64,000 nucleotides of DNA, taken from an uncultured Lachnospiraceae bacterium (GTDB lineage Bacteria > Bacillota > Clostridia > Lachnospirales > Lachnospiraceae). The stretch spans positions 54,747 to 118,746 of the forward strand of contig CAMUYQ010000003.1 of assembly GCA_947165025.1 (NCBI GenBank). The letters run 5' to 3'. The stretch's first letter is position 1, and each line of letters opens with the position of its first letter. The position numbers and the translations under genes were made by a program. A model generated the notes under the pieces. The model had not been told where the DNA came from, did no database searches, and saw only the letters and a program-made list of their open reading frames with translations. Shown here one piece after another: positions 6,720 to 46,827 of this stretch.

Positions 6720-6803
6720 GCAGAAATGGCGGAATTGGCAGACGCGCACGGTTCAGGTCCGTGTGAGGTAACACTCATGAGGGTTCAAGTCCCTTTTTCT
6801 GCA
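6720..6803 (+). tRNA. tRNA-Leu (anticodon CAG), long variable arm, no encoded CCA
   Basis: Hand-folded cloverleaf. Acceptor GCAGAAA/TTTCTGC; D-stem GCG/CGC with a GG loop; anticodon stem CACGG/CCGTG with loop TTCAGGT; 17-nt variable arm; T-arm GAGGG-TTCAAGT-CCCTT; discriminator A. Confidence 0.85.
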
Positions 6804-6804
6804 C
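6788..6804 (+). repeat. att core copy 1 (AGTCCCTTTTTCTGCAC), 3' end of tRNA-Leu
   Basis: The same 17-mer recurs at 34529-34545 and 46617-46633 (identical) and at 44761-44777 (one mismatch), all in direct orientation. Confidence 0.8.
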
Positions 6805-6808
6805 TTAA

Positions 6809-6924: not shown

Positions 6925-6982
6925 TTTCCCCCATCGATGGGGGAAAAAATGGGGGAAAAATTGGGGGAAAAATTGGGGGATA
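6925..6982 (+). repeat. GGGGGAAAA array (candidate arm-type recombinase sites), left end of segment 1
   Basis: Perfect palindrome TTTTCCCCC-ATCGAT-GGGGGAAAA, followed by three more GGGGGAAAA-like copies at a 12-bp period. A related array lies at 34455-34492. Confidence 0.5.
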
Positions 6983-22231: not shown

Positions 22232-24625
22232 TCAATGCCCTATATCGTCAAACAAATCATATACCGGTGTGCGTGTAGGCTCCGGATCGTAATCGTAGTC
22301 ATAATCATAATCAGTACGGTCATCGGCTGAGTGCGAGGCAGTATAATCCCTTTCGGTTATTCCTGCATCAGATCTCGAGAGCGTCTCCTCTTTAACCGGA
22401 GTCTTCGGTTCAAGAGCCTTAAGAGCTGCTATATACGGTTCTTGCGTAAAGCTTCGATCCATTGCAAGTTTAGAGTCACGGTCGATCATTTTGATATTTC
22501 GATATTCGCCTGTAACGCAGTTCAAGTTAACGGAAGCTGCCTTCAACAAGCCTTCCAGAATACGGAGCTGATGCAGATAATCATCGTAATTGTTCTCTGA
22601 CAGCCCAAGATTAAGAGCCTTCTGCTTCAGCTCTTTGTATCTTAGGATCTGCATTGTTGTTTCCATATCGACAGACTGAATTATCTCACTAAGAGCATTT
22701 GTTTTTTCTTCCTCAGTCAGTTGGGGGTCCTGCTCGCTGTCTTTGTTGTGAAGATGTCTGTATTTTGCTTCGAGATAACGTTCCTCTTTATTTTTCTCAT
22801 ATTCAGCATAGGATATAAGAACTTCCGGCCTTTGAAGGTCCTTGTTACTTAAGAATCTGATGATCTGCTCGGCTTCAGCAAACGTAAGCTCATTATACGG
22901 ACAGGTGAGTTTCCATCTGTCAGAGTTAGTGTTTAACAAGTTGTAAAGATCGACTTTCTGCTTGCTTGTCATAGGCTCCAGCAGTGCATGCTCATGGCGT
23001 ATTGTCGACTTATCGGGGTATGTGAGCAGTCGATCGATCTGAGAAAGATCAAAGCCTTTAAGTACACGCTCTAAGCTTTGAAGACCCCTGATCACAGATT
23101 CTTTTTCCTGATAGCACTTTACCGAACCCTCCAGTTTATCGATATACTTCTTAAGATTACTCCAGGTCTTGCCTATTTCCCGGAATCGACTTCTGATATC
23201 AGCATGAGTGTATAAACCAAGAAGGTTTGCCGCATACATGGATCGCTGCATCCTCAGGATCTTCTTGTCTATATCAGAGATCACAGGATGAGATCTGAGG
23301 AGTTCCTCGCGATCTTTATCTTTAAATAGGGACATGATTGTATCAATGATCAGCTCTTTGAAGTATTTAAGAACTTTGATGGCATAAAGAAATACTATCT
23401 CCAGATTCGATCTCCGGCAGCCGTTTTCATTGTATCTGCTTATATTCATGTTGAATTCGTTTGTGCGTGGATCTTTTGATATATAATCGATGCGATCGAT
23501 CCTGTACTGCTGTTCAGCCCTCTTTTCCTCCTGAAGAACCTGTCTTTCAGGAATCGGTTTGCCGCCATTATCAAATCCTATGCCGGAATCCCAGCCCATT
23601 CGCTGGCATATGGCTTTTCTCATATATTTTTCACCAAGTGCTATATCCCTTACCTGGAACGGCAAAATGCTGTCTTTCATATGAAGATCATGGCATATGA
23701 ACAGAACATGATCAGGTGTCTGCGAAATGTCATATCTGCTGATCCCGGTTTTCGGATCCGTGTATTGCTCCGACATGAACTCCATAAATCCCTGCCAGCT
23801 TGTAACACCGTGTTCCTTGCATTCCGCTAGAGCGCTATCAATATCTTGTCTGATGCGGTCTTTATTGCTCGTACCGTCATGACTCTTTGCTCTTACATAT
23901 TCTTCAGCCACATCCGGGACATCCGGCGTATGATTTTTATGATCGATATCCGCATCAAGCAGTATGGGAAGATCATGTGCGAGGCTTATCTCGTCATTGA
24001 GATTGCGGAGCTTACGTCGTAGTGCTTTGTTCATGCATATTTTATGAGTGCCGTCCATAGAGAATGCACAGACAACGATATGGTTATGGACATGATCCGT
24101 ATTCATGTGTGTTGATACAACACATTGAAATCCGGGAAAAGCTCTTTTGGCATATTCAACCCCGATCCTGTGAACAAGAAGCGGATCCGGAGGTGTCCCG
24201 CCATGTTCTTTACCGGGAAATGACTGTATAAAGTGTTCAGCATCTATCGGTTTCTTTTCGACGGTAATGCGTCTGCCAGTCTTCTTGTCTGTATATGTAG
24301 CGTACTTGGCGCTTCCTCTGCGCCTTCTGCCATTACCGTTTTCTTCATACTTATACTTGGACGCTGCAAAGTCAACAGAGGCCATTTCTTCGATACAGTT
24401 GATGCCGGTAACAAGGACTGTCTTATCACCGTCAAGTTCCATAACCGTCTTTTCGAGATTTTTAGCATACTTAAGAACAACATCGAAGTTGTCATCTTCG
24501 ACTACGGTGTCCTTCGCTTCATATGACTTATCCGTCAAAGTGTTCTTCGTTTCATCGTTAACGTAGTTGATGCATGAAGCAACGCCTTTGGAACTATGTA
24601 TTGGGATGTTTTTAAGTATAGCCAT
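22232..24625 (-). CDS. Relaxase/mobilisation nuclease-domain protein (MobA/VirD2 superfamily) with a long C-terminal extension
   Basis: N-terminal relaxase region with His triad HMNTDHVHNHIVV; 797 aa; convergent with the unknown-function cluster. Confidence 0.8.
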   Translation of the reverse strand: MAILKNIPIHSSKGVASCINYVNDETKNTLTDKSYEAKDTVVEDDNFDVVLKYAKNLEKTVMELDGDKTVLVTGINCIEEMASVDFAASKYKYEENGNGRRRRGSAKYATYTDKKTGRRITVEKKPIDAEHFIQSFPGKEHGGTPPDPLLVHRIGVEYAKRAFPGFQCVVSTHMNTDHVHNHIVVCAFSMDGTHKICMNKALRRKLRNLNDEISLAHDLPILLDADIDHKNHTPDVPDVAEEYVRAKSHDGTSNKDRIRQDIDSALAECKEHGVTSWQGFMEFMSEQYTDPKTGISRYDISQTPDHVLFICHDLHMKDSILPFQVRDIALGEKYMRKAICQRMGWDSGIGFDNGGKPIPERQVLQEEKRAEQQYRIDRIDYISKDPRTNEFNMNISRYNENGCRRSNLEIVFLYAIKVLKYFKELIIDTIMSLFKDKDREELLRSHPVISDIDKKILRMQRSMYAANLLGLYTHADIRSRFREIGKTWSNLKKYIDKLEGSVKCYQEKESVIRGLQSLERVLKGFDLSQIDRLLTYPDKSTIRHEHALLEPMTSKQKVDLYNLLNTNSDRWKLTCPYNELTFAEAEQIIRFLSNKDLQRPEVLISYAEYEKNKEERYLEAKYRHLHNKDSEQDPQLTEEEKTNALSEIIQSVDMETTMQILRYKELKQKALNLGLSENNYDDYLHQLRILEGLLKAASVNLNCVTGEYRNIKMIDRDSKLAMDRSFTQEPYIAALKALEPKTPVKEETLSRSDAGITERDYTASHSADDRTDYDYDYDYDPEPTRTPVYDLFDDIGH

Positions 24626-27025: not shown

Positions 27026-27151
27026 CAAAAAGGGAGCCCTCCCCGACCAAAGTTTGGACTCCCTTAAGTGCAACAGACACAGAGTGCCTGCATGGTTATA
27101 ATACTCTACCTTGCAGCACTCTGTAAATAGCCGAGATTGAGAGGTGAGAGT

Positions 27152-28270
27152 ATGGCAAAGAAGTATAAAGGAAAGTATGAGCGAACACGTATAACACTGA
27201 AAAGTGGCAAGACTAAAGACATCTACTATAAAAACAAAGATGAGATGGTAGAAAAACTGAAAGAGGCTCGTGAAAAGGATTCGGAAGAGTATCAGCTGCT
27301 TTATAATCCGACATTGAATCAGTATTATCAACATTTTACTGAGATAAGGAGAACAGAAGTAAAGGAGTCTACACTCAGATCGCAAAAATCCCAGTTCAAA
27401 CAGATAACGGATGTCGAAATGGCAAAGGGTATCAAGTTCGGTGATATGCATATCAAAGATATCACGAGACGGAATATTGAAGACGCACGGCAAAAGCTTT
27501 TGGACCAGGGGAAAAGTCCACAGGGGCTTAATATAGCATTTGCACACCTTAATCATGTTCTTAACACGGCTACGATTGATGAAACAATAAAACGGAACCC
27601 CTGCAAGGCGCTTAAACAGTTGAAGAGAGACGATACTCCGGTAGTGTCTGATACAACGCACAGGGCATTATCGGAAGAGGAAACCATAAGGTTCTTTGAA
27701 GCGGCAAAAGAATGCAACAGTTATTACTACAATGTTTTTCGGTTCATGATAAAGACCGGCATGCGTATCGGTGAGGTGGGCGCTTTGTATCCGACAGATA
27801 TAGACCGGCATAAGGGTTTTATTCATGTGAGAAGGACTGTCAGACGCAACGAAGCAGGAAGATTTTATATCGGTGATGATGTAAAGACATCAAGCGGAAA
27901 AAGAGATATACCACTGACCGATGATATTCTTCAGGTGATTAGAGATCAGGAAAAGAATAATCATACAATGTTCGGCCTTTCCAAGGACGGATTGATCTTC
28001 AGATCTGTAGAAGGGAATATCATGAGAGACTACAGCGTTGATCGTGAAATCGCGAGGATATGCAGGAAAGCCGACATTGAGTATTTCTCGAGCCACGCAT
28101 TTCGTAATACGTACGCGACACGCTTTATGGAGCAGCGTCCCCAGGACTTCAAAATCCTTTCGGAGATTCTTGGGCATAAGGATGTATCGATCACGCTGAA
28201 CCTGTATACGCACGTGATGACCGAGAAGAAGGTTAATGCTATGAAGGATGTTGTTATAAGGATTGGATGA
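27152..28270 (+). CDS. int: Tyrosine recombinase / phage-type integrase
   Basis: C-terminal catalytic motifs TGMRIGE (Arg), HAFRNTYATR (His-x-x-Arg), LGHKDVSITLNLYTH (His...Tyr); ATG 27152 behind SD GAGGTGAG. Confidence 0.9.
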   Translation: MAKKYKGKYERTRITLKSGKTKDIYYKNKDEMVEKLKEAREKDSEEYQLLYNPTLNQYYQHFTEIRRTEVKESTLRSQKSQFKQITDVEMAKGIKFGDMHIKDITRRNIEDARQKLLDQGKSPQGLNIAFAHLNHVLNTATIDETIKRNPCKALKQLKRDDTPVVSDTTHRALSEEETIRFFEAAKECNSYYYNVFRFMIKTGMRIGEVGALYPTDIDRHKGFIHVRRTVRRNEAGRFYIGDDVKTSSGKRDIPLTDDILQVIRDQEKNNHTMFGLSKDGLIFRSVEGNIMRDYSVDREIARICRKADIEYFSSHAFRNTYATRFMEQRPQDFKILSEILGHKDVSITLNLYTHVMTEKKVNAMKDVVIRIG

Positions 28271-29362: not shown

Positions 29363-30784
29363 GTGATACTCGGAGGAATACAGTTGGAAGTTTTTAACAT
29401 CGGCAAGGAAAACGAACAGGTTGAATATAAAAAGAGTACTGCCGAACTCAAAGAAGGCGTGATCTCTATGGCGGCTATACTCAACAAGCACGGCTCTGGA
29501 GAGCTGTATTTTGGCGTAAAGAACAATGGTGATGTTGTTGGTCAACAGATTACGGATAAGACTCTACGGGATATAAGCCAGGAGATAAGCAATCATATCA
29601 GACCTGTAATATACCCTGAAGTGGTTAAAAAGGACTACGGAGATAAAGAAGTAGCCTACGTTAAGTTTGATGGGAAAAGAAAGCCTTACCTGGCATATCA
29701 CATTCCGCGTATTCGTGTTGCAGATGAAGATAAGGTTATGGACCAGGATACCTATAACGACATGCTAAAGGAGAGGGATTCGTCAAAAGCATGGGAGCTG
29801 CAGGAATCAAAATATACGGTTGAAGATATTATTGGATCTGATTTTCGTACTTATCTTAACAGAGCCAAGGAGGCAAATCGGATCACCTTTGACTCAGATG
29901 AGCCTGCGATAGTTCTTGAAAAACTGGAACTTTTGGCTGAAGATGGAATCCATCTTTTGAATGCTGGGGCTGTACTGTTCTGCAATTCTTCTATGAATGA
30001 TGTTCAGATGGCTAAATTTGCCACAGATGTAAAGGCAACCTTTACCGATATTCGCAGGGAGGATCGTGGGTCTATCATAGGATTGAGCAAAACCTGTGAG
30101 CAGTATATTATTGACGCAATGGATTGGAAGGCGGATATCATAGGACTTAAGCGGGTAGAGACACCGGAAATTCCCGTGGAAGCCGTCCGTGAGGCGATCA
30201 TCAATTCCTACGGACATAGGCTCTATGACAATAATCAATGCAATGAGATAGATGTTTTTAAGAACAGAATTGAAATCCATACGACAGGAGGCTTCCCTAA
30301 AGGGCACACTCCTGAAGAATTCCTAGATGGTAATAAAAAGGCTATTCGGAGAAACAAACTTATCACCGGAGTTTTGTATTATTCTGATGATATGGAGACA
30401 TTTGCAACCGGACTTAAGCGCATAAAGGATCTATGTGATGAAGCCGGGTGTAAAGTTGAGTTCCGTATGGAACAGGATGACTTCGTTGTGGTGTTTTACC
30501 GAAATCTCAGGGAAGAGTGGAATCAGGCAAAGAGCGCTGAGAGTAGCTCCCTTGATAGCACTACCAAGAGACTACCAAGAGACTACCAAGAGACTACCAA
30601 GACAAGCGCAGAGGCTATCAAAGATATTATGCGAAATAATCCGACCATCTCTGCGGCCGAAATAGCAAAATTGGTGGGGTTATCTGTTAGTGGAGTTCAG
30701 TATCATATTAAAAAGTTGAAGGCATCTGGGGAGATTGAAAGAGAAGGCGGAGATTTTGGTGGCAGATGGATAGTAAATACATAA
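29363..30784 (+). CDS. AlbA_2 (Schlafen-like) domain / ATPase-like / C-terminal winged-HTH protein (RecG-like putative regulator family)
   Basis: N-terminal ENEQVEYKKS...LNKHGSGELYFGV (AlbA_2 signature); C-terminal wHTH AAEIAKLVGLSVSGVQYHIKKLKASGEIERE. The true start may be TTG 29384, behind GGAGGA. Confidence 0.7.
   Translation: MILGGIQLEVFNIGKENEQVEYKKSTAELKEGVISMAAILNKHGSGELYFGVKNNGDVVGQQITDKTLRDISQEISNHIRPVIYPEVVKKDYGDKEVAYVKFDGKRKPYLAYHIPRIRVADEDKVMDQDTYNDMLKERDSSKAWELQESKYTVEDIIGSDFRTYLNRAKEANRITFDSDEPAIVLEKLELLAEDGIHLLNAGAVLFCNSSMNDVQMAKFATDVKATFTDIRREDRGSIIGLSKTCEQYIIDAMDWKADIIGLKRVETPEIPVEAVREAIINSYGHRLYDNNQCNEIDVFKNRIEIHTTGGFPKGHTPEEFLDGNKKAIRRNKLITGVLYYSDDMETFATGLKRIKDLCDEAGCKVEFRMEQDDFVVVFYRNLREEWNQAKSAESSSLDSTTKRLPRDYQETTKTSAEAIKDIMRNNPTISAAEIAKLVGLSVSGVQYHIKKLKASGEIEREGGDFGGRWIVNT
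30561..30604 (+). repeat. Four tandem copies of an 11-nt unit (CTACCAAGAGA) inside the coding sequence
   Basis: Copies at 30561, 30572, 30583 and 30594 (the last has one mismatch). The unit length is not a multiple of 3. Confidence 0.9.
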
Positions 30785-31067
30785 TCTGTATTATACATAA
30801 GAGATTTATCTTTCATAGCCATATATTGTTCTGTGGAGATAAAAAATACGGGATACTAGATATGCTGAATTAGAAACATGTTGTAATTCATGTCTAATAG
30901 AATCAATTCTCAATATGTTTTGTTCCGACGGAATGCGAATATGTGTTTTATATGTTCGAAAACAGAAAGATGAGAGAAGCATAAATGTGAATGAAAAGCT
31001 ATAAAATCCTGAGGTTGTGCTTTGAAAACTCAAAGAAACTGAAGGTGGATTGAATAAAGGGGTGGCG

Positions 31068-32702
31068 ATGGGCTCGCTTGGATTATTTGAGATTCGAAAT
31101 TTTTGGGATAAAATGGAGATTCCATACAAAAATAAGAAGGAGATATTTGAGAAATTCTATGGGAAATCAAATCTAAAAATAAATAACGCTGATGAGGCAA
31201 TTTCGTATTTGCGAGTTGTTTTGGACAAGCTTCAAGCAGTGATGGTAAGTATTATTACGACTGGAAATAGCAAAAGGGTTATATTTGAGTTGCTTAAAAT
31301 ACAAGATAAGTGCTTTAATCACTATTGCTTTGAAAAAGAAGAGAGAAGAGAAATAATAGATAGAAAAGTGGATAGTTCACATCTTCAAGAAATATATGGG
31401 GTTAATAGAAATATCGCACTGGATTTATTATATGGAATAAATATATGGTTGGAAAATGCTGTTTTACTGCAACAAAAGCTAGAAGAGAAATACGATGTTC
31501 ATATAATGAACATTGATGTTGAGCTTTGTCTTTTGGTATATGTATATGGAACGGTATCACGGTCCTTATCTTTTCTTACACTAAGCAAAAATCTAAACAG
31601 TACTAAACTGTATTATGGATTAGAAATCACTCCTCAAAGCAATATGCCAATAAATGTATTACGGTATCATCCGGTGATTTATTATAATCCGCTAATGGCT
31701 GGGAACCAAAATGTATTTAACATGAAAACAGAGGATTTTAGGAGTTTAGATAATACAGAATTTGGAAGAGGTTTTGCAAACGAGTATAATATAAGCCTTT
31801 TAGATTCATTGAGAGTGTTAAAAACATTTCAAAAAAATGAATTAGAAGATGGAAGAATTGCATGCATGGCTTATGAGAAAAAATTCTTCATAGCTAGAGT
31901 AAATGAGGTGGTAGCTAAATCGGGAATGGGAGAGAGGTTTTTGGCGGCATTTTCTATTGATAAAGAGAAGATGGTTGCTAATTGCTCAAATAATGATCCT
32001 ATTATATGGAAGGGCGGTGTACATAAATATCGTTTTGAATTAAGGCCTATTGTTTTGATGGAAGATGATACAGTATGCATTTCGTACCAAGCGTTTGAAC
32101 AGACAATTCAAATATGGATGTCATATTATTCTAATGGCGGAGTTGCATATAGTGATATTGAAGATTTGTTTACTGAAGGCGAAGAAAGACGCAATAGAGA
32201 ATTGTCCCATGAGTTGTTGAAAAGTATTGTTCAAATTTTGAAAGAAAAGTATCCAGATTATTATTGTGATACAAATGTGAAATATGAAAGGATTTTCGGC
32301 TCAAAAGACATTGATTATGGAGATTATGACATTGTTTTTTTTGCAAAAGACAAACGGGAATTGTTTTTAATTGAATCCAAGTATTTCTCGGATTCACTTA
32401 ATATTAGTGGTCATATAAATGATTTTGTGAAATTAATTAAAAAAAATGGATATTATGAGCATTGTAGAAAAAGATATGACTTGGTGTTGGAAAATACTTA
32501 TGATATTAAGAGATTTATAGGAGTTAGCGGGAATATAAACATGCATTGCCTTTTTATACCATCTAAGCCTTTAGAGATTGAATTCCAAGATGATGATAAG
32601 GTAGTTACTTTTGTTCCTTTTGGTATTTTGGAACAGTATTTAGATGGAAAGATTGTTTCAGAGGATGGATCTGAAATTATTAGACCAACGATTCTTATCT
32701 GA
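31068..32702 (+). CDS. Large hypothetical protein with a C-terminal PD-(D/E)xK-type nuclease motif
   Basis: GDYDIVFFAKDKRELFLIESKYF (D...ExK spacing typical of restriction-endonuclease-like/NERD folds). The ~420-aa N-terminal region has no recognisable motif. Start uncertain (TTG 31050, ATG 31068 or ATG 31113). Visibly AT-rich. Confidence 0.6.
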   Translation: MGSLGLFEIRNFWDKMEIPYKNKKEIFEKFYGKSNLKINNADEAISYLRVVLDKLQAVMVSIITTGNSKRVIFELLKIQDKCFNHYCFEKEERREIIDRKVDSSHLQEIYGVNRNIALDLLYGINIWLENAVLLQQKLEEKYDVHIMNIDVELCLLVYVYGTVSRSLSFLTLSKNLNSTKLYYGLEITPQSNMPINVLRYHPVIYYNPLMAGNQNVFNMKTEDFRSLDNTEFGRGFANEYNISLLDSLRVLKTFQKNELEDGRIACMAYEKKFFIARVNEVVAKSGMGERFLAAFSIDKEKMVANCSNNDPIIWKGGVHKYRFELRPIVLMEDDTVCISYQAFEQTIQIWMSYYSNGGVAYSDIEDLFTEGEERRNRELSHELLKSIVQILKEKYPDYYCDTNVKYERIFGSKDIDYGDYDIVFFAKDKRELFLIESKYFSDSLNISGHINDFVKLIKKNGYYEHCRKRYDLVLENTYDIKRFIGVSGNINMHCLFIPSKPLEIEFQDDDKVVTFVPFGILEQYLDGKIVSEDGSEIIRPTILI

Positions 32703-32963
32703 AAAAGCTGTTTATTGATCTATTATAAACTATATTACTATTGGGTTTTGTTTTATACTCAACGCGTGTCTACCTTGGGAATGAATGAGACACTATGAAT
32801 GTAGCTTCCTTTTACGTGTATTTTCCGGGCGTGTTATAAATCAATATGCTGATCAATTGTATTCTGGGATGTAGTTAGTAGGTCCTTAGTTTTGATAAAC
32901 GATAGATAACGGGACATAGAAATATGAAAACGGATACCCTGGAGAATTAATCTGGGAGGAAAA

Positions 32964-33746
32964 ATGAATTTTTTATTCTGGAATACACATAAGAATACGG
33001 GGATTAATAAATATGTGGCTGACATAGTTAACGAGAAAAAAGTCGATACTATTATCCTATGTGAATATAAAGCGATCCCGGAGGAGTTGATTTCGTTACT
33101 TCCAAAGAAATACTTGATGGCCGAAGACGTTGGGTGTGGAGACATCCGGGTATTTAGTAATCATAATGATATTGTGCAGGGGGTACAGGAAAGCCATTAT
33201 TCTATTCATATAATTGATCATAGTTTTATACTTTGTGCTATGCATTTGCCAAGCAGACGTCATCACTTTGGATCAAATAATCGTAAGATTATCGCACAAA
33301 GGGCAGTTTCAGAATTGGAGATAATTGAGAAGGAGTTGGGTTGTGTGAACAGTATAGTTGTAGGTGATTTGAATGATAATCCATATGATGAAACTTGTTT
33401 GGCAGCCGAATCGTTACATGGACTATCTTCGATTCGTGAGGCTGAACGAAAATCACGAATAATAGATGGTGTTAAGTTTAATATGTTCTATAATCCGATG
33501 TGGAGTTTGCTTGGAGATAATAAATTTCCGCCTGGAACATATTATTATTCTAGTAATGATGCCATGTGCTCGTTTTGGTATATGTTTGACCAGGTCTTAA
33601 TCAGGCCGCAATTAAAAGAACTATTGTCGTTCGATGATATTGAGATAATGTGTGGTACAGAGAGTTATAGTTTGTTAGATAATAAGGGACATCCCGATAT
33701 AACAATAAGTGATCATTTGCCACTTTTTTTTAGGATAGGAATATAA
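32964..33746 (+). CDS. Endonuclease/exonuclease/phosphatase (EEP) family protein
   Basis: N-terminal FWNT...ILCEY (Asn/Glu), internal VGDLN, C-terminal SDHLPLF, the hallmark EEP catalytic motifs. Confidence 0.75.
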   Translation: MNFLFWNTHKNTGINKYVADIVNEKKVDTIILCEYKAIPEELISLLPKKYLMAEDVGCGDIRVFSNHNDIVQGVQESHYSIHIIDHSFILCAMHLPSRRHHFGSNNRKIIAQRAVSELEIIEKELGCVNSIVVGDLNDNPYDETCLAAESLHGLSSIREAERKSRIIDGVKFNMFYNPMWSLLGDNKFPPGTYYYSSNDAMCSFWYMFDQVLIRPQLKELLSFDDIEIMCGTESYSLLDNKGHPDITISDHLPLFFRIGI

Positions 33747-33760
33747 GGAGGAATAGATGA

Positions 33761-34318
33761 ATGAGAATTCCTACTAAGTTTGATTTTTCAACAAAATCAG
33801 GTGAGTTCCCTATTGATATTATAAAGGAGGAAATCGAGGGGATAAACAAACAGTTAAAAGGAATTGTAAAGATTTCTGTAGAGGAATATGATGGGCCAGT
33901 GGAGTCATATGACAAGATGAATGCGCTAGCTGCTCTTGCGTCAAATCTATATGGGAATACACATGTAGATATTCAAGATGAACTAGGTGAATTAGTAGAA
34001 GAAGATTTCAAGTATGAAATTATTATCACATCAGATTATTTGGAGTTTTACAAATATCGTTTGATGTTTCTCAGAAATGGATTATCAGGGTATCCGGCCG
34101 AAATAATTCTGGATAAAGATGTATCTGATGAGATTAATAAAAACGTTGATGAAGACTACCATTATTTTATAGATTCTGAAAGTGGTTTTAGAGCCGCAAT
34201 AAAGAGTATATTCTTGACAAGAAGAGTATCAGAAGTTATTCAGAATATTATTTATGCTGTCCAGAGAACAGAAGAATACAAGAAGGTTAATACAAAAACG
34301 AAAAATAATGAGACATAA
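33761..34318 (+). CDS. Hypothetical acidic protein, closely following the EEP gene
   Basis: SD AAGGAGGA overlaps the EEP stop codon; 185 aa; no motif recognised. Confidence 0.6.
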   Translation: MRIPTKFDFSTKSGEFPIDIIKEEIEGINKQLKGIVKISVEEYDGPVESYDKMNALAALASNLYGNTHVDIQDELGELVEEDFKYEIIITSDYLEFYKYRLMFLRNGLSGYPAEIILDKDVSDEINKNVDEDYHYFIDSESGFRAAIKSIFLTRRVSEVIQNIIYAVQRTEEYKKVNTKTKNNET

Positions 34319-34454: not shown

Positions 34455-34492
34455 ATGGGGAAATGTGCAAGGGGGAAACCATGGGGGAAAAT
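34455..34492 (+). repeat. GGGG(G)AAA array, right end of segment 1
   Basis: GGGGAAA (34457), GGGGGAAA (34471) and GGGGGAAAA (34483), in the same orientation as the array at 6939-6982, 37-72 bp before att copy 2. Confidence 0.5.
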
Positions 34493-34528
34493 GTTCATAA
34501 ACGTTGAAAAACCGTACCCAGAGGTTTC

Positions 34529-34733
34529 AGTCCCTTTTTCTGCACTATCATTTGTACGTATTTATGGGCAGCCGTCAATGTGGCGGAAATGCTGATGAAT
34601 ACGTACTTTTTTTATCCCACACATCGTTCGTCATATTGCACAACACAAGATATTGATAGATGAATATTATAGTTTTTCTCCCTTTTTACATTTGTGTTGC
34701 TCATGATAGAATAATTCAAATCGGCATTTGCGG
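34529..34733 (+). repeat. att copy 2 plus a ~190-bp duplicate of the native tRNA-downstream region
   Basis: Aligns by eye with 46617-46816. The 17-mer core is identical. The terminator hairpin is partly degenerate here, and the following ~125 nt differ at about 4 positions. Confidence 0.85.
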
Positions 34734-44760: not shown

Positions 44761-44777
44761 AGTTCCTTTTTCTGCAC
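44761..44777 (+). repeat. att core copy 3 (AGTTCCTTTTTCTGCAC, one mismatch)
   Basis: Direct repeat of the tRNA-Leu 3' end, followed by TATCTATTTGTAG, which resembles the native downstream TAAGATTTGTACG. Confidence 0.7.
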
Positions 44778-44810
44778 TATCTATTTGTAGTCTTAAAAAT
44801 CGTCATTTTC

Positions 44811-46616: not shown

Positions 46617-46827
46617 AGTCCCTTTTTCTGCACTAAGATTTGTACGTATTTATCAGTAACCGTCAAAAAGAGCGGAAACGCTGATAAATACGTACTTTTT
46701 TTATCCCACACATCGTTCGTCATTTTGCACAACACAAGATATTGATAGATGAATATTATAGTTTTTCTTCCTTTTTACATTTGTGTTGCTCATGATAGAA
46801 TAATTCAAATCGCAATTTGTCGAGATG
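46617..46827 (+). repeat. att core copy 4 plus the native tRNA-downstream region (partner of 34529-34733)
   Basis: See 34529-34733. Also contains the 22-mer CAAATCGCAATTTGTCGAGATG (46806-46827), which recurs at 43874-43895. Confidence 0.85.
46642..46702 (+). terminator. Probable ancestral tRNA-Leu terminator
   Basis: 15-bp stem GTACGTATTTATCAG / CTGATAAATACGTAC followed by TTTTTTT. Confidence 0.65.

Follow-up and report, generated by a model that had tools for sequence, protein, structure and literature searches.

A 64,000-nucleotide stretch of DNA from an uncultured Lachnospiraceae bacterium (contig CAMUYQ010000003.1, positions 54,747 to 118,746; hereafter the window) carries a 1.35-kb module of two genes on the forward strand. 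The first gene (P0001, 260 amino acids; 32964-33746) encodes a phosphodiesterase/nuclease of the endonuclease/exonuclease/phosphatase (EEP) fold, which we predict to be an effector. The second gene (P0002, 185 amino acids; 33761-34318) encodes an acidic protein, which we call the partner and predict to be either a regulator (inhibitor or sensor) or a specificity subunit. The two genes form one evolutionary unit, and their pairing is essentially obligate. We propose that the pair is an autonomous, horizontally mobile two-gene conflict module, most likely a defence against phages or plasmids of the abortive-infection or toxin-antitoxin (TA) type. This proposal draws on genomic context, and we give it an even chance of being right. 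The strict two-gene unit, its mobility, its restriction-modification (R-M) and prophage contexts and the intact nuclease site all fit a conflict module.

The two genes occur and evolve together

Our collection of loci consists of 80 loci fetched of the 241 species-genome relatives of P0001, 20 IMG/VR contigs, two plasmids and six loci from look-ups. The EEP family as a whole comprises more than 1100 clusters at 90% identity. With a single sequence as query (tblastn), 76 of 82 loci have a homologue of P0002 directly 3' of the EEP gene. With the family hidden Markov model, the partner is found directly downstream in 102 of the 104 loci that have room for it. The two exceptions are L075, where the EEP gene is a pseudogene, and L108, where a divergent EEP gene is followed by an unmatched open reading frame (ORF) of 228 amino acids. 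Gene order is invariably EEP first and partner second. The gap between the genes ranges from -23 to +31 nt and the stop and start codons frequently overlap, which fits translational coupling.

The same picture emerges when the search starts from the partner. The partner family contains no stretch conserved enough for a reverse search of metagenome contigs; in its place, five representatives from the partner-profile search were looked up. All five (8 loci) have EEP sequence directly upstream of the partner or fused to it. The sequence-only reading of the window, which had singled out the two genes as a pair, left their co-occurrence to be checked: it is near-exceptionless in both search directions.

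The two proteins also diverge together. Pairwise identities of the EEP proteins and of their partners correlate with r=0.876 over 87 pairs, and the maximum in 200 label permutations is 0.10. The partner diverges faster than the enzyme (mean identity 29% and 40%, respectively). The pair thus shows the arrangement by which type II TA systems are recognised: two adjacent, co-oriented, tightly coupled small genes that are inherited as a unit.

The first gene encodes a predicted nuclease

By its predicted fold, P0001 is unambiguously a member of the EEP superfamily, a divergent branch that is recognised by structure. The AlphaFold2 model (pLDDT, the predicted local distance difference test score, 89; predicted template modelling score, pTM, 0.90) gives 269 Foldseek matches in the PDB at E<=1e-3. 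The top matches are mouse and human TDP2, archaeal and bacterial ExoIII/ExoA, APE1, Mth0212 and DNase I, with a probability of 1.0, E values from 1e-10 to 1e-9 and TM scores of 0.55-0.61. All of the best 50 of the 269 matches are DNA-directed EEP enzymes, that is DNA repair enzymes or DNases, and none of these 50 is of the CCR4/PDE12 type. Sequence identity to the structural matches is 11-17%.

Profile libraries and sequence databases recover little of this relationship. P0001 scores 20.1 bits against Pfam PF19580, below the cut-off of 27, and has no match to PF03372; few of its relatives carry precomputed matches to either family. Searches of NCBIfam and PADLOC return nothing, and PDB sequences return nothing significant, be it with the single sequence or with a profile of 32 sequences. 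In PHROGs, the EEP protein matches one unannotated phage family (phrog_24714, E 2.9e-7). Because P0001 falls below the Pfam threshold and yet is an EEP protein by structure, we place it on a divergent branch.

The active site is intact. The hallmark motifs named in the sequence-only reading are all found and are invariant in the family: FWNT (N7), E34, VVGDLNDNP (D135, N137) and ISDHLP (D250, H251). Across about 105 intact relatives, eight catalytic residues (N7, E34, H94, D135, N137, D209, D250 and H251) do not vary; they are present in 110-114 of 119 aligned pieces. The exceptions are truncations save one, and the sole substitution among intact copies is D250N in L017. The GDLN of P0001 aligns with GDMN in E. 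coli ExoIII (D151/N153), and this GDxN motif is all that hhalign aligns between ExoIII and the EEP profile. Besides FWNT, the invariant motifs that are the family's own are YNPMW, PxGTYY and WxxxDQV.

The first EEP strand begins at residue 2, and we find no N-terminal extension, signal peptide or secretion/delivery domain in P0001. The EEP protein is mildly acidic (median isoelectric point, pI, 5.4). The structural matches and the conservation of residues bear out the earlier assignment to the EEP fold with an intact active site. As modelled, P0001 is a cytoplasmic, metal-dependent phosphodiesterase that is predicted to be catalytically competent, and its substrate is most probably DNA.

The partner is a protein without recognisable relatives

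For P0002 there are no matches in Pfam, PADLOC, NCBIfam or PHROGs (noise only in the latter two) and nothing significant among PDB sequences, with the single sequence as well as with a profile. A Pfam search with 52 partners (P0002 and 51 aligned relatives) gives zero family matches. The AlphaFold2 model (pLDDT 86, pTM 0.75) has a helix at the N-terminus, a small sheet and, at the C-terminus, a long helix. Its low-confidence loop (residues ~50-80) is missing from the shorter forms outside Bacillota. Foldseek finds no match to this model in the PDB (best E 0.18) and none in BFVD (best TM 0.2-0.35). Profile libraries, the PDB and BFVD thus agree with the sequence-only reading, which had called the second protein unknown.

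Its own family is large. The partner profile, searched against 1.84 billion cluster representatives (50% clustering), gives 3140 matches at E<=1e-3, and 1282 of them reach E<=1e-10. Almost all matches are standalone proteins of 140-200 amino acids, and none is annotated. P17, Y111 and P112 are invariant and Y97 is almost so; judged from the sequences, nothing in the conserved residues suggests catalysis. The acidity noted earlier is real: P0002 has a pI of 4.7 (family median 4.9), with 35 D/E versus 23 K/R.

At two loci the partner is 376-380 amino acids long, with a C-terminal extension of about 190 amino acids (L063:8515-9657 and L109:3838-4968). A tandem duplication of the partner does not explain this extension, as hhalign of the second half against the family gives a probability of 0.7%. 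In both loci a 354-amino-acid gene with a faint SIR2_2 match lies just upstream.

Distribution and mobility

EEP relatives occur in 241 of 185,579 species genomes (one genome per species), or about 0.13%, and in at least 10 phyla. Most carriers of the pair are gut and rumen Lachnospiraceae, Oscillospiraceae and other Clostridia. The pair is further found in Chloroflexota, Planctomycetota, Gemmatimonadota, Myxococcota, Thermodesulfobacteriota, KSB1, Poribacteria and Auribacterota, and on 20 IMG/VR contigs, one phage-plasmid and one B. cereus megaplasmid. In 8 further loci, integrases lie within 8 kb. A search of 50,697 GenBank phage genomes gives no match.

On the EEP tree, viral contigs need 9 label changes, which points to repeated exchange with phages. 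The neighbours in phage DNA fall into two groups. The first consists of CI-type repressors, regulators and Ant; the second consists of genes for the small and large terminase subunits, the portal and the head, and here the pair lies just upstream. Positions next to the repressor and upstream of the terminase are typical slots for phage accessory genes.

Two observations concern individual carriers. The B. cereus copy (L087; plasmid p.1, NZ_CP053657.2 22344-23560) has a DUF4365 protein and an integrase as neighbours; its 500-kb megaplasmid is that of a cultured soil isolate. The EEP genes of L024 (binned as Sutterella) and L040 (binned as Verrucomicrobia) are near-identical to the Lachnospiraceae/Oscillospiraceae copies L021 and L073, respectively, with branch lengths of 0.01-0.03. 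This near-identity reflects either very recent transfer or an error in the binning of metagenome-assembled genomes (MAGs).

Relatives of the pair lie inside restriction-modification operons

Eight species loci and, in addition, L004/5 carry the pair within a type I R-M operon, in the slot between hsdS and hsdR (named loci: L004/5, L017, L023, L025, L027, L028, L054 and L066). The embedded pairs share the strand of the operon and are set off from its genes by a few to about 45 nt. The shared strand and the short gaps suggest that the pair is co-transcribed with the R-M operon. One of these loci, L023, comes from Ruminococcus flavefaciens ATCC 19208, a cultured type-collection strain (hsdM-hsdS-...-EEP-partner-hsdR), and is a practical experimental source. 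In the window such embedding is absent, and the pair is island cargo.

Overall, R-M genes make up about 20% of the immediate neighbours. Upstream neighbours (n=70) include type I S subunits (6), MmeI (2), Eco57I-type enzymes (3), a C5 methylase (1), an N4/N6 methylase (1) and integrases (3), and downstream neighbours (n=65) include 7-8 HsdR. Among second neighbours (n=121) we find HsdM (3-4), Mrr (2), DpnII (1), NACHT-associated restriction endonucleases (2), Schlafen/AlbA_2 (2), Bro-N (2) and Xre-type helix-turn-helix proteins (6). The sequence-only reading had pointed to a position that often holds anti-phage or anti-plasmid systems; relatives of the pair occur within type I R-M operons, next to other R-M genes and in slots for accessory genes of prophages.

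The enzyme is lost preferentially

In at least 5 loci the partner sequence is kept and the EEP gene is damaged by interruption, truncation or internal deletion (L030, L060, L061, L111/112 and L113). Three of the cases are in-frame chimeras, in which EEP residues 1 to ~96 are fused to the C-terminal part of the partner (L111:2079-2648, L112:2037-2606 and L113:1900-2676). The chimeras lie directly after hsdS and before the next gene. They are deletion remnants, fossil pairs inside type I R-M operons. Preferential loss of the EEP gene fits an effector that is costly or dangerous.

The module and its island in the window

Both ORFs lie at the positions given above, where the sequence-only reading had placed them. 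Direct reading of the sequence reveals a ribosome-binding signal in front of each gene, both on the forward strand. A GGGAGG resembling a Shine-Dalgarno sequence (32954-32959) lies 4 nt 5' of the EEP start codon, and the partner has the Shine-Dalgarno sequence GGAGG (33747-33751), 9 nt 5' of its ATG. The latter was thought to overlap the EEP stop codon. It is contiguous with the stop codon and does not overlap it: TAA occupies 33744-33746, and GGAGG starts right after it. A promoter scan of the 261-nt gap 5' of the EEP gene yields nothing convincing (14 promoter-like sites versus 10.6 expected). As noted earlier, the pair sits in an AT-rich block: at 31-35 kb, the most AT-rich part of the window, GC content is 0.32-0.36, compared to 0.40-0.50 elsewhere.

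The pair forms the final two genes of a 27.7-kb island (~6806-34546) that is integrated in tRNA-Leu. The sole tRNA in the window is tRNA-Leu(CAG) at 6720-6804. A repeat of its 3' end closes the island as attR (34520-34546, forward strand), 200 nt past the stop codon of the partner. The repeat contains an 18-nt exact core, AGTCCCTTTTTCTGCACT, which is found at 6788-6805 and at 34529-34546, with 0 matches expected by chance. In total there are four copies of the 18-nt tRNA-Leu 3' end, all in the same orientation: the two above, one at 44761-44778 (one mismatch) and one at 46617-46634. Therefore, at least 2-3 elements are stacked in tandem at tRNA-Leu. The EEP pair falls in the first segment.

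The island encodes a tyrosine integrase (27137-28270, forward strand; Pfam Phage_integrase, E 1.2e-24), which is context and lies outside the module, a MobA/VirD2 relaxase (22232-24625, reverse strand) and a LytTR two-component system. It is a mobilisable element integrated in tRNA-Leu. The pair lies between the integrase and the second copy of the tRNA-Leu 3' end, as previously described. Repeats of the (A)TGGGGGAAAA type occur in runs just within attL (6925-6980), and a GGGGAAA-rich stretch that resembles them is found just ahead of attR (34462-34492). These repeats may be arm-type binding sites for the recombinase or for Xis of the island.

Three genes separate the integrase from the pair: a weak HNH-like ORF, a gene for a Schlafen/AlbA_2-HATPase_c_4-winged-helix-turn-helix (wHTH) protein and a gene for a 550-amino-acid protein. 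The suggestion that the neighbours are nuclease-type genes is weakly supported, as it rests on the HNH match, which is below threshold (E 1.4e-3); the 550-amino-acid neighbour has a putative PD-(D/E)xK motif. The Schlafen/AlbA_2-ATPase-wHTH gene contains a tandemly repeated 11-nt unit, ACTACCAAGAG, at 30560-30602. Since the period is not a multiple of 3, slippage would shift the reading frame ahead of the wHTH domain. The 550-amino-acid protein (31050-32702) belongs to a large family, with 226 matches among 8000 scored candidates, mostly at 40-70% identity. It is without Pfam domain and has only faint matches to Upx and PDC-S02. It never co-occurs with the EEP pair at other loci and is therefore probably an independent defence-type cargo gene.

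Does the module have a third component? The three cargo genes (550-amino-acid, Schlafen/AlbA_2 ATPase and HNH-like) accompany the pair at no other locus. A hidden small RNA was considered as well, but the gaps to hsdS and hsdR in the R-M-embedded loci are too small for it (~5-45 nt). Given that the neighbouring cargo genes are absent from the other loci, the module consists of the two genes alone.

Interpretation

The following mechanism is what we infer from structure and context, for the DNA substrate and the physical interaction of the two proteins as much as for the direction of regulation and the defence phenotype. The EEP enzyme would be a DNA-degrading effector and the partner its dedicated cognate regulator, produced in amounts of about 1:1 by means of translational coupling. 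The partner would bind the enzyme and hold it inactive, or gate it, until an infection cue releases it. Once released, the nuclease would degrade invading DNA, host DNA or both. A pair embedded between hsdS and hsdR may then act as a second line of defence alongside the R-M system. Within the defence reading, the partner is most likely an inhibitor or sensor, which takes about half of the weight; the remainder goes to an activating or targeting subunit.

Several observations weigh against defence by a toxin-like effector. Antitoxin-type DNA-binding domains (helix-turn-helix, ribbon-helix-helix or AbrB) are not found in the partners, either with Pfam (n=52) or in the PDB fold search. The acidity of the partner is weak evidence for DNA mimicry, because the EEP protein is itself mildly acidic. 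At about 80% of the loci the neighbours are ordinary metabolic genes. The R-M-embedded copies all fall into one 25-row subclade of the EEP tree, with 6 changes by parsimony and between 1 and 6 events, so the embedded copies should not be counted as many separate cases. Furthermore, the reverse of the usual decay is observed once: in L036, a MAG, the partner has a nonsense codon and the EEP gene is apparently intact. If this is not an assembly error, it speaks against a toxin that kills when the partner is missing. We find no RNA runs that contain the region, which is present in few ruminant-gut DNA runs only. Finally, neither protein matches any family in PADLOC-DB v2.0.0 at E<=0.01, which lends defence no positive support and is neutral with respect to novelty. 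It agrees with the sequence-only reading, which knew of no named defence system for the pair: PADLOC-DB v2.0.0 contains no model for it and the literature searched no description.

The pair could instead be a restriction-type nuclease made of two obligate subunits. The partner would target or activate the enzyme (at a DNA modification, end or structure), and the complex would attack foreign DNA directly and without killing the cell, similar to TgvAB. Strict pairing, coupling that suggests 1:1 amounts and co-evolution all suit such an enzyme, and so does a partner that lacks antitoxin-type DNA-binding domains. It would also share with TgvAB, a two-protein type IV system, the embedding in type I R-M operons and the co-transcription with them, and the broken partner of L036 would be tolerable if the EEP protein alone were inactive. 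However, EEP enzymes such as ExoIII, APE1 and DNase I normally act as monomers, the partner has no recognisable DNA-binding, nucleoside triphosphatase or modification-reading domain, and repeated loss of the EEP core with the partner kept is more typical of toxin decay. We regard a two-subunit nuclease as the main rival explanation and as rather unlikely. Pure addiction, that is a TA module that stabilises its carrier elements or operons and has no role against phages or plasmids, seems to us less likely still. Many loci lie amid housekeeping genes with no mobile element visible, and an association with R-M systems is unexpected for a plain addiction module. The toxin-first arrangement with its tight coupling, the patchy, selfish-looking spread, the occurrence on islands, plasmids, a phage-plasmid and prophages and, in the window, the position at the edge of an integrative element would all be in line with addiction; an autoregulatory DNA-binding domain, however, is not found, and many TA modules have proved to be defensive anyway.

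It is improbable that the pair serves the phage or element that carries it, either in counter-defence, by degrading host DNA or an immune signalling nucleotide, or in DNA metabolism, by aiding packaging by the terminase. Such a role could account for the tree, on which the pair entered or left viral contigs independently at least 9 times, and for several copies directly 5' of terminase small- and large-subunit genes. Yet most copies lie outside phages, some of them inside chromosomal type I R-M operons, and the 50,697 GenBank phage genomes are without a match. The EEP enzyme PDE12 degrades 2'-5' oligoadenylate, but the best 50 structural matches of P0001 are DNA repair enzymes and DNases, not enzymes of the CCR4/PDE12 type. 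Those structural neighbours might suggest a housekeeping repair enzyme (similar to ExoIII, an apurinic/apyrimidinic endonuclease or TDP2) with an accessory factor. We find this scarcely credible, because a protein scattered in so few species genomes over phyla and mobile elements is not a housekeeping protein; its distribution excludes the role. In addition, the gene is AT-rich island cargo in the window, P0001 scores under the threshold of every curated EEP and ExoIII model, and pseudogenisation is frequent. A bolder version of the defence reading is a long shot: the pair may be the first defence system with an EEP-fold effector, a TDP2-like "unlinkase" or end-processing enzyme that destroys protein-capped or marked ends of invader DNA, with the partner as licensing sensor. 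Candidate targets would be the terminal-protein-primed genomes of phages and the relaxase-5'-phosphotyrosyl-single-stranded DNA intermediates of conjugating plasmids. Behind this idea stand the TDP2 chains among the top structural matches and H94, where ExoIII and APE1 have a tyrosine; nothing further separates the enzyme from an ordinary DNase.

Comparison with known systems

P0001 shares its fold and the catalytic constellation N/E/H/D-x-N/D/D-H with TDP2, ExoIII/ExoA/APE1/Mth0212 and DNase I. It differs from TDP2, ExoIII and DNase I in that its family has motifs of its own, comes with an obligate partner gene and is accessory and mobile in its distribution. With the housekeeping enzymes XthA and ExoA it shares neither sequence membership nor the near-universal distribution in the chromosomal core.

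The arrangement of the pair resembles a different set of systems. RnlAB and LsoAB are toxin-first type II TA pairs with anti-phage roles, and colicin DNase-Im and barnase-barstar are nuclease-immunity pairs. As in such pairs, the nuclease gene of the EEP pair has directly behind it a small acidic gene that is its cognate. The two are tightly coupled and co-diverge, and the second diverges faster. However, the folds of both proteins of the EEP pair are unrelated to theirs, and toxicity and neutralisation are putative for the EEP pair. Polymorphic toxin-immunity pairs carry the toxin domain C-terminally on a protein that is secreted or delivered, which the EEP pair does not.

Closest in architecture is TgvAB, a two-gene type IV restriction system inside the type I R-M operon of VPI-2 of V. 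cholerae, in which both genes are needed and which complements the surrounding R-M system (PMC11411939). The relatives of the EEP pair that lie in the hsdS-hsdR slot are likewise two-gene cassettes in a type I R-M operon. The TgvAB proteins are GmrSD-like (DUF262/DUF1524), and the EEP pair differs from them in sequence and in fold. Similarly, the HEC systems are embedded in Hma and were found by "guilt by embedding" (10.1101/2024.01.29.577857). HEC-01 to HEC-09 contain TOPRIM, NERD, PIN, GmrSD, RelE, HEPN or NYN domains, and none contains an EEP domain (10.1101/2024.01.29.577857). With HEC and with PrrC-EcoprrI the embedded relatives of the pair have in common a latent nuclease gene nested in a restriction operon and a defence role inferred from embedding. 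PrrC itself, an anticodon RNase fused to an ATP-binding cassette ATPase, is unlike the EEP enzyme. Defence cassettes nested in R-M or Hma operons have published precedents in TgvAB and HEC, which favours a defensive role for the pair.

In the defence literature searched, the only EEP domain mentioned is that of the YprA helicases of ARMADA type II, where it is predicted to be inactivated and is fused to the helicase (PMC12458937); a system of an EEP effector and a partner is not described there. In contrast to the ARMADA domain, P0001 is a standalone protein with an intact active site.

Set beside these systems, the pair is an undescribed candidate of a kind that is known, the compact defence or TA module built on a nuclease. 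If it is defensive, it adds an effector fold, since an active EEP effector is in none of the searched catalogues and papers, and it adds a partner family of about 3,100 cluster representatives without structural or sequence relatives. The module is compact and autonomous and ranges from gut Clostridia to Planctomycetota and phages, so it is easily tested and possibly useful as a regulated DNase. It is also a further case in the growing list of cassettes that are nested in type I R-M operons.

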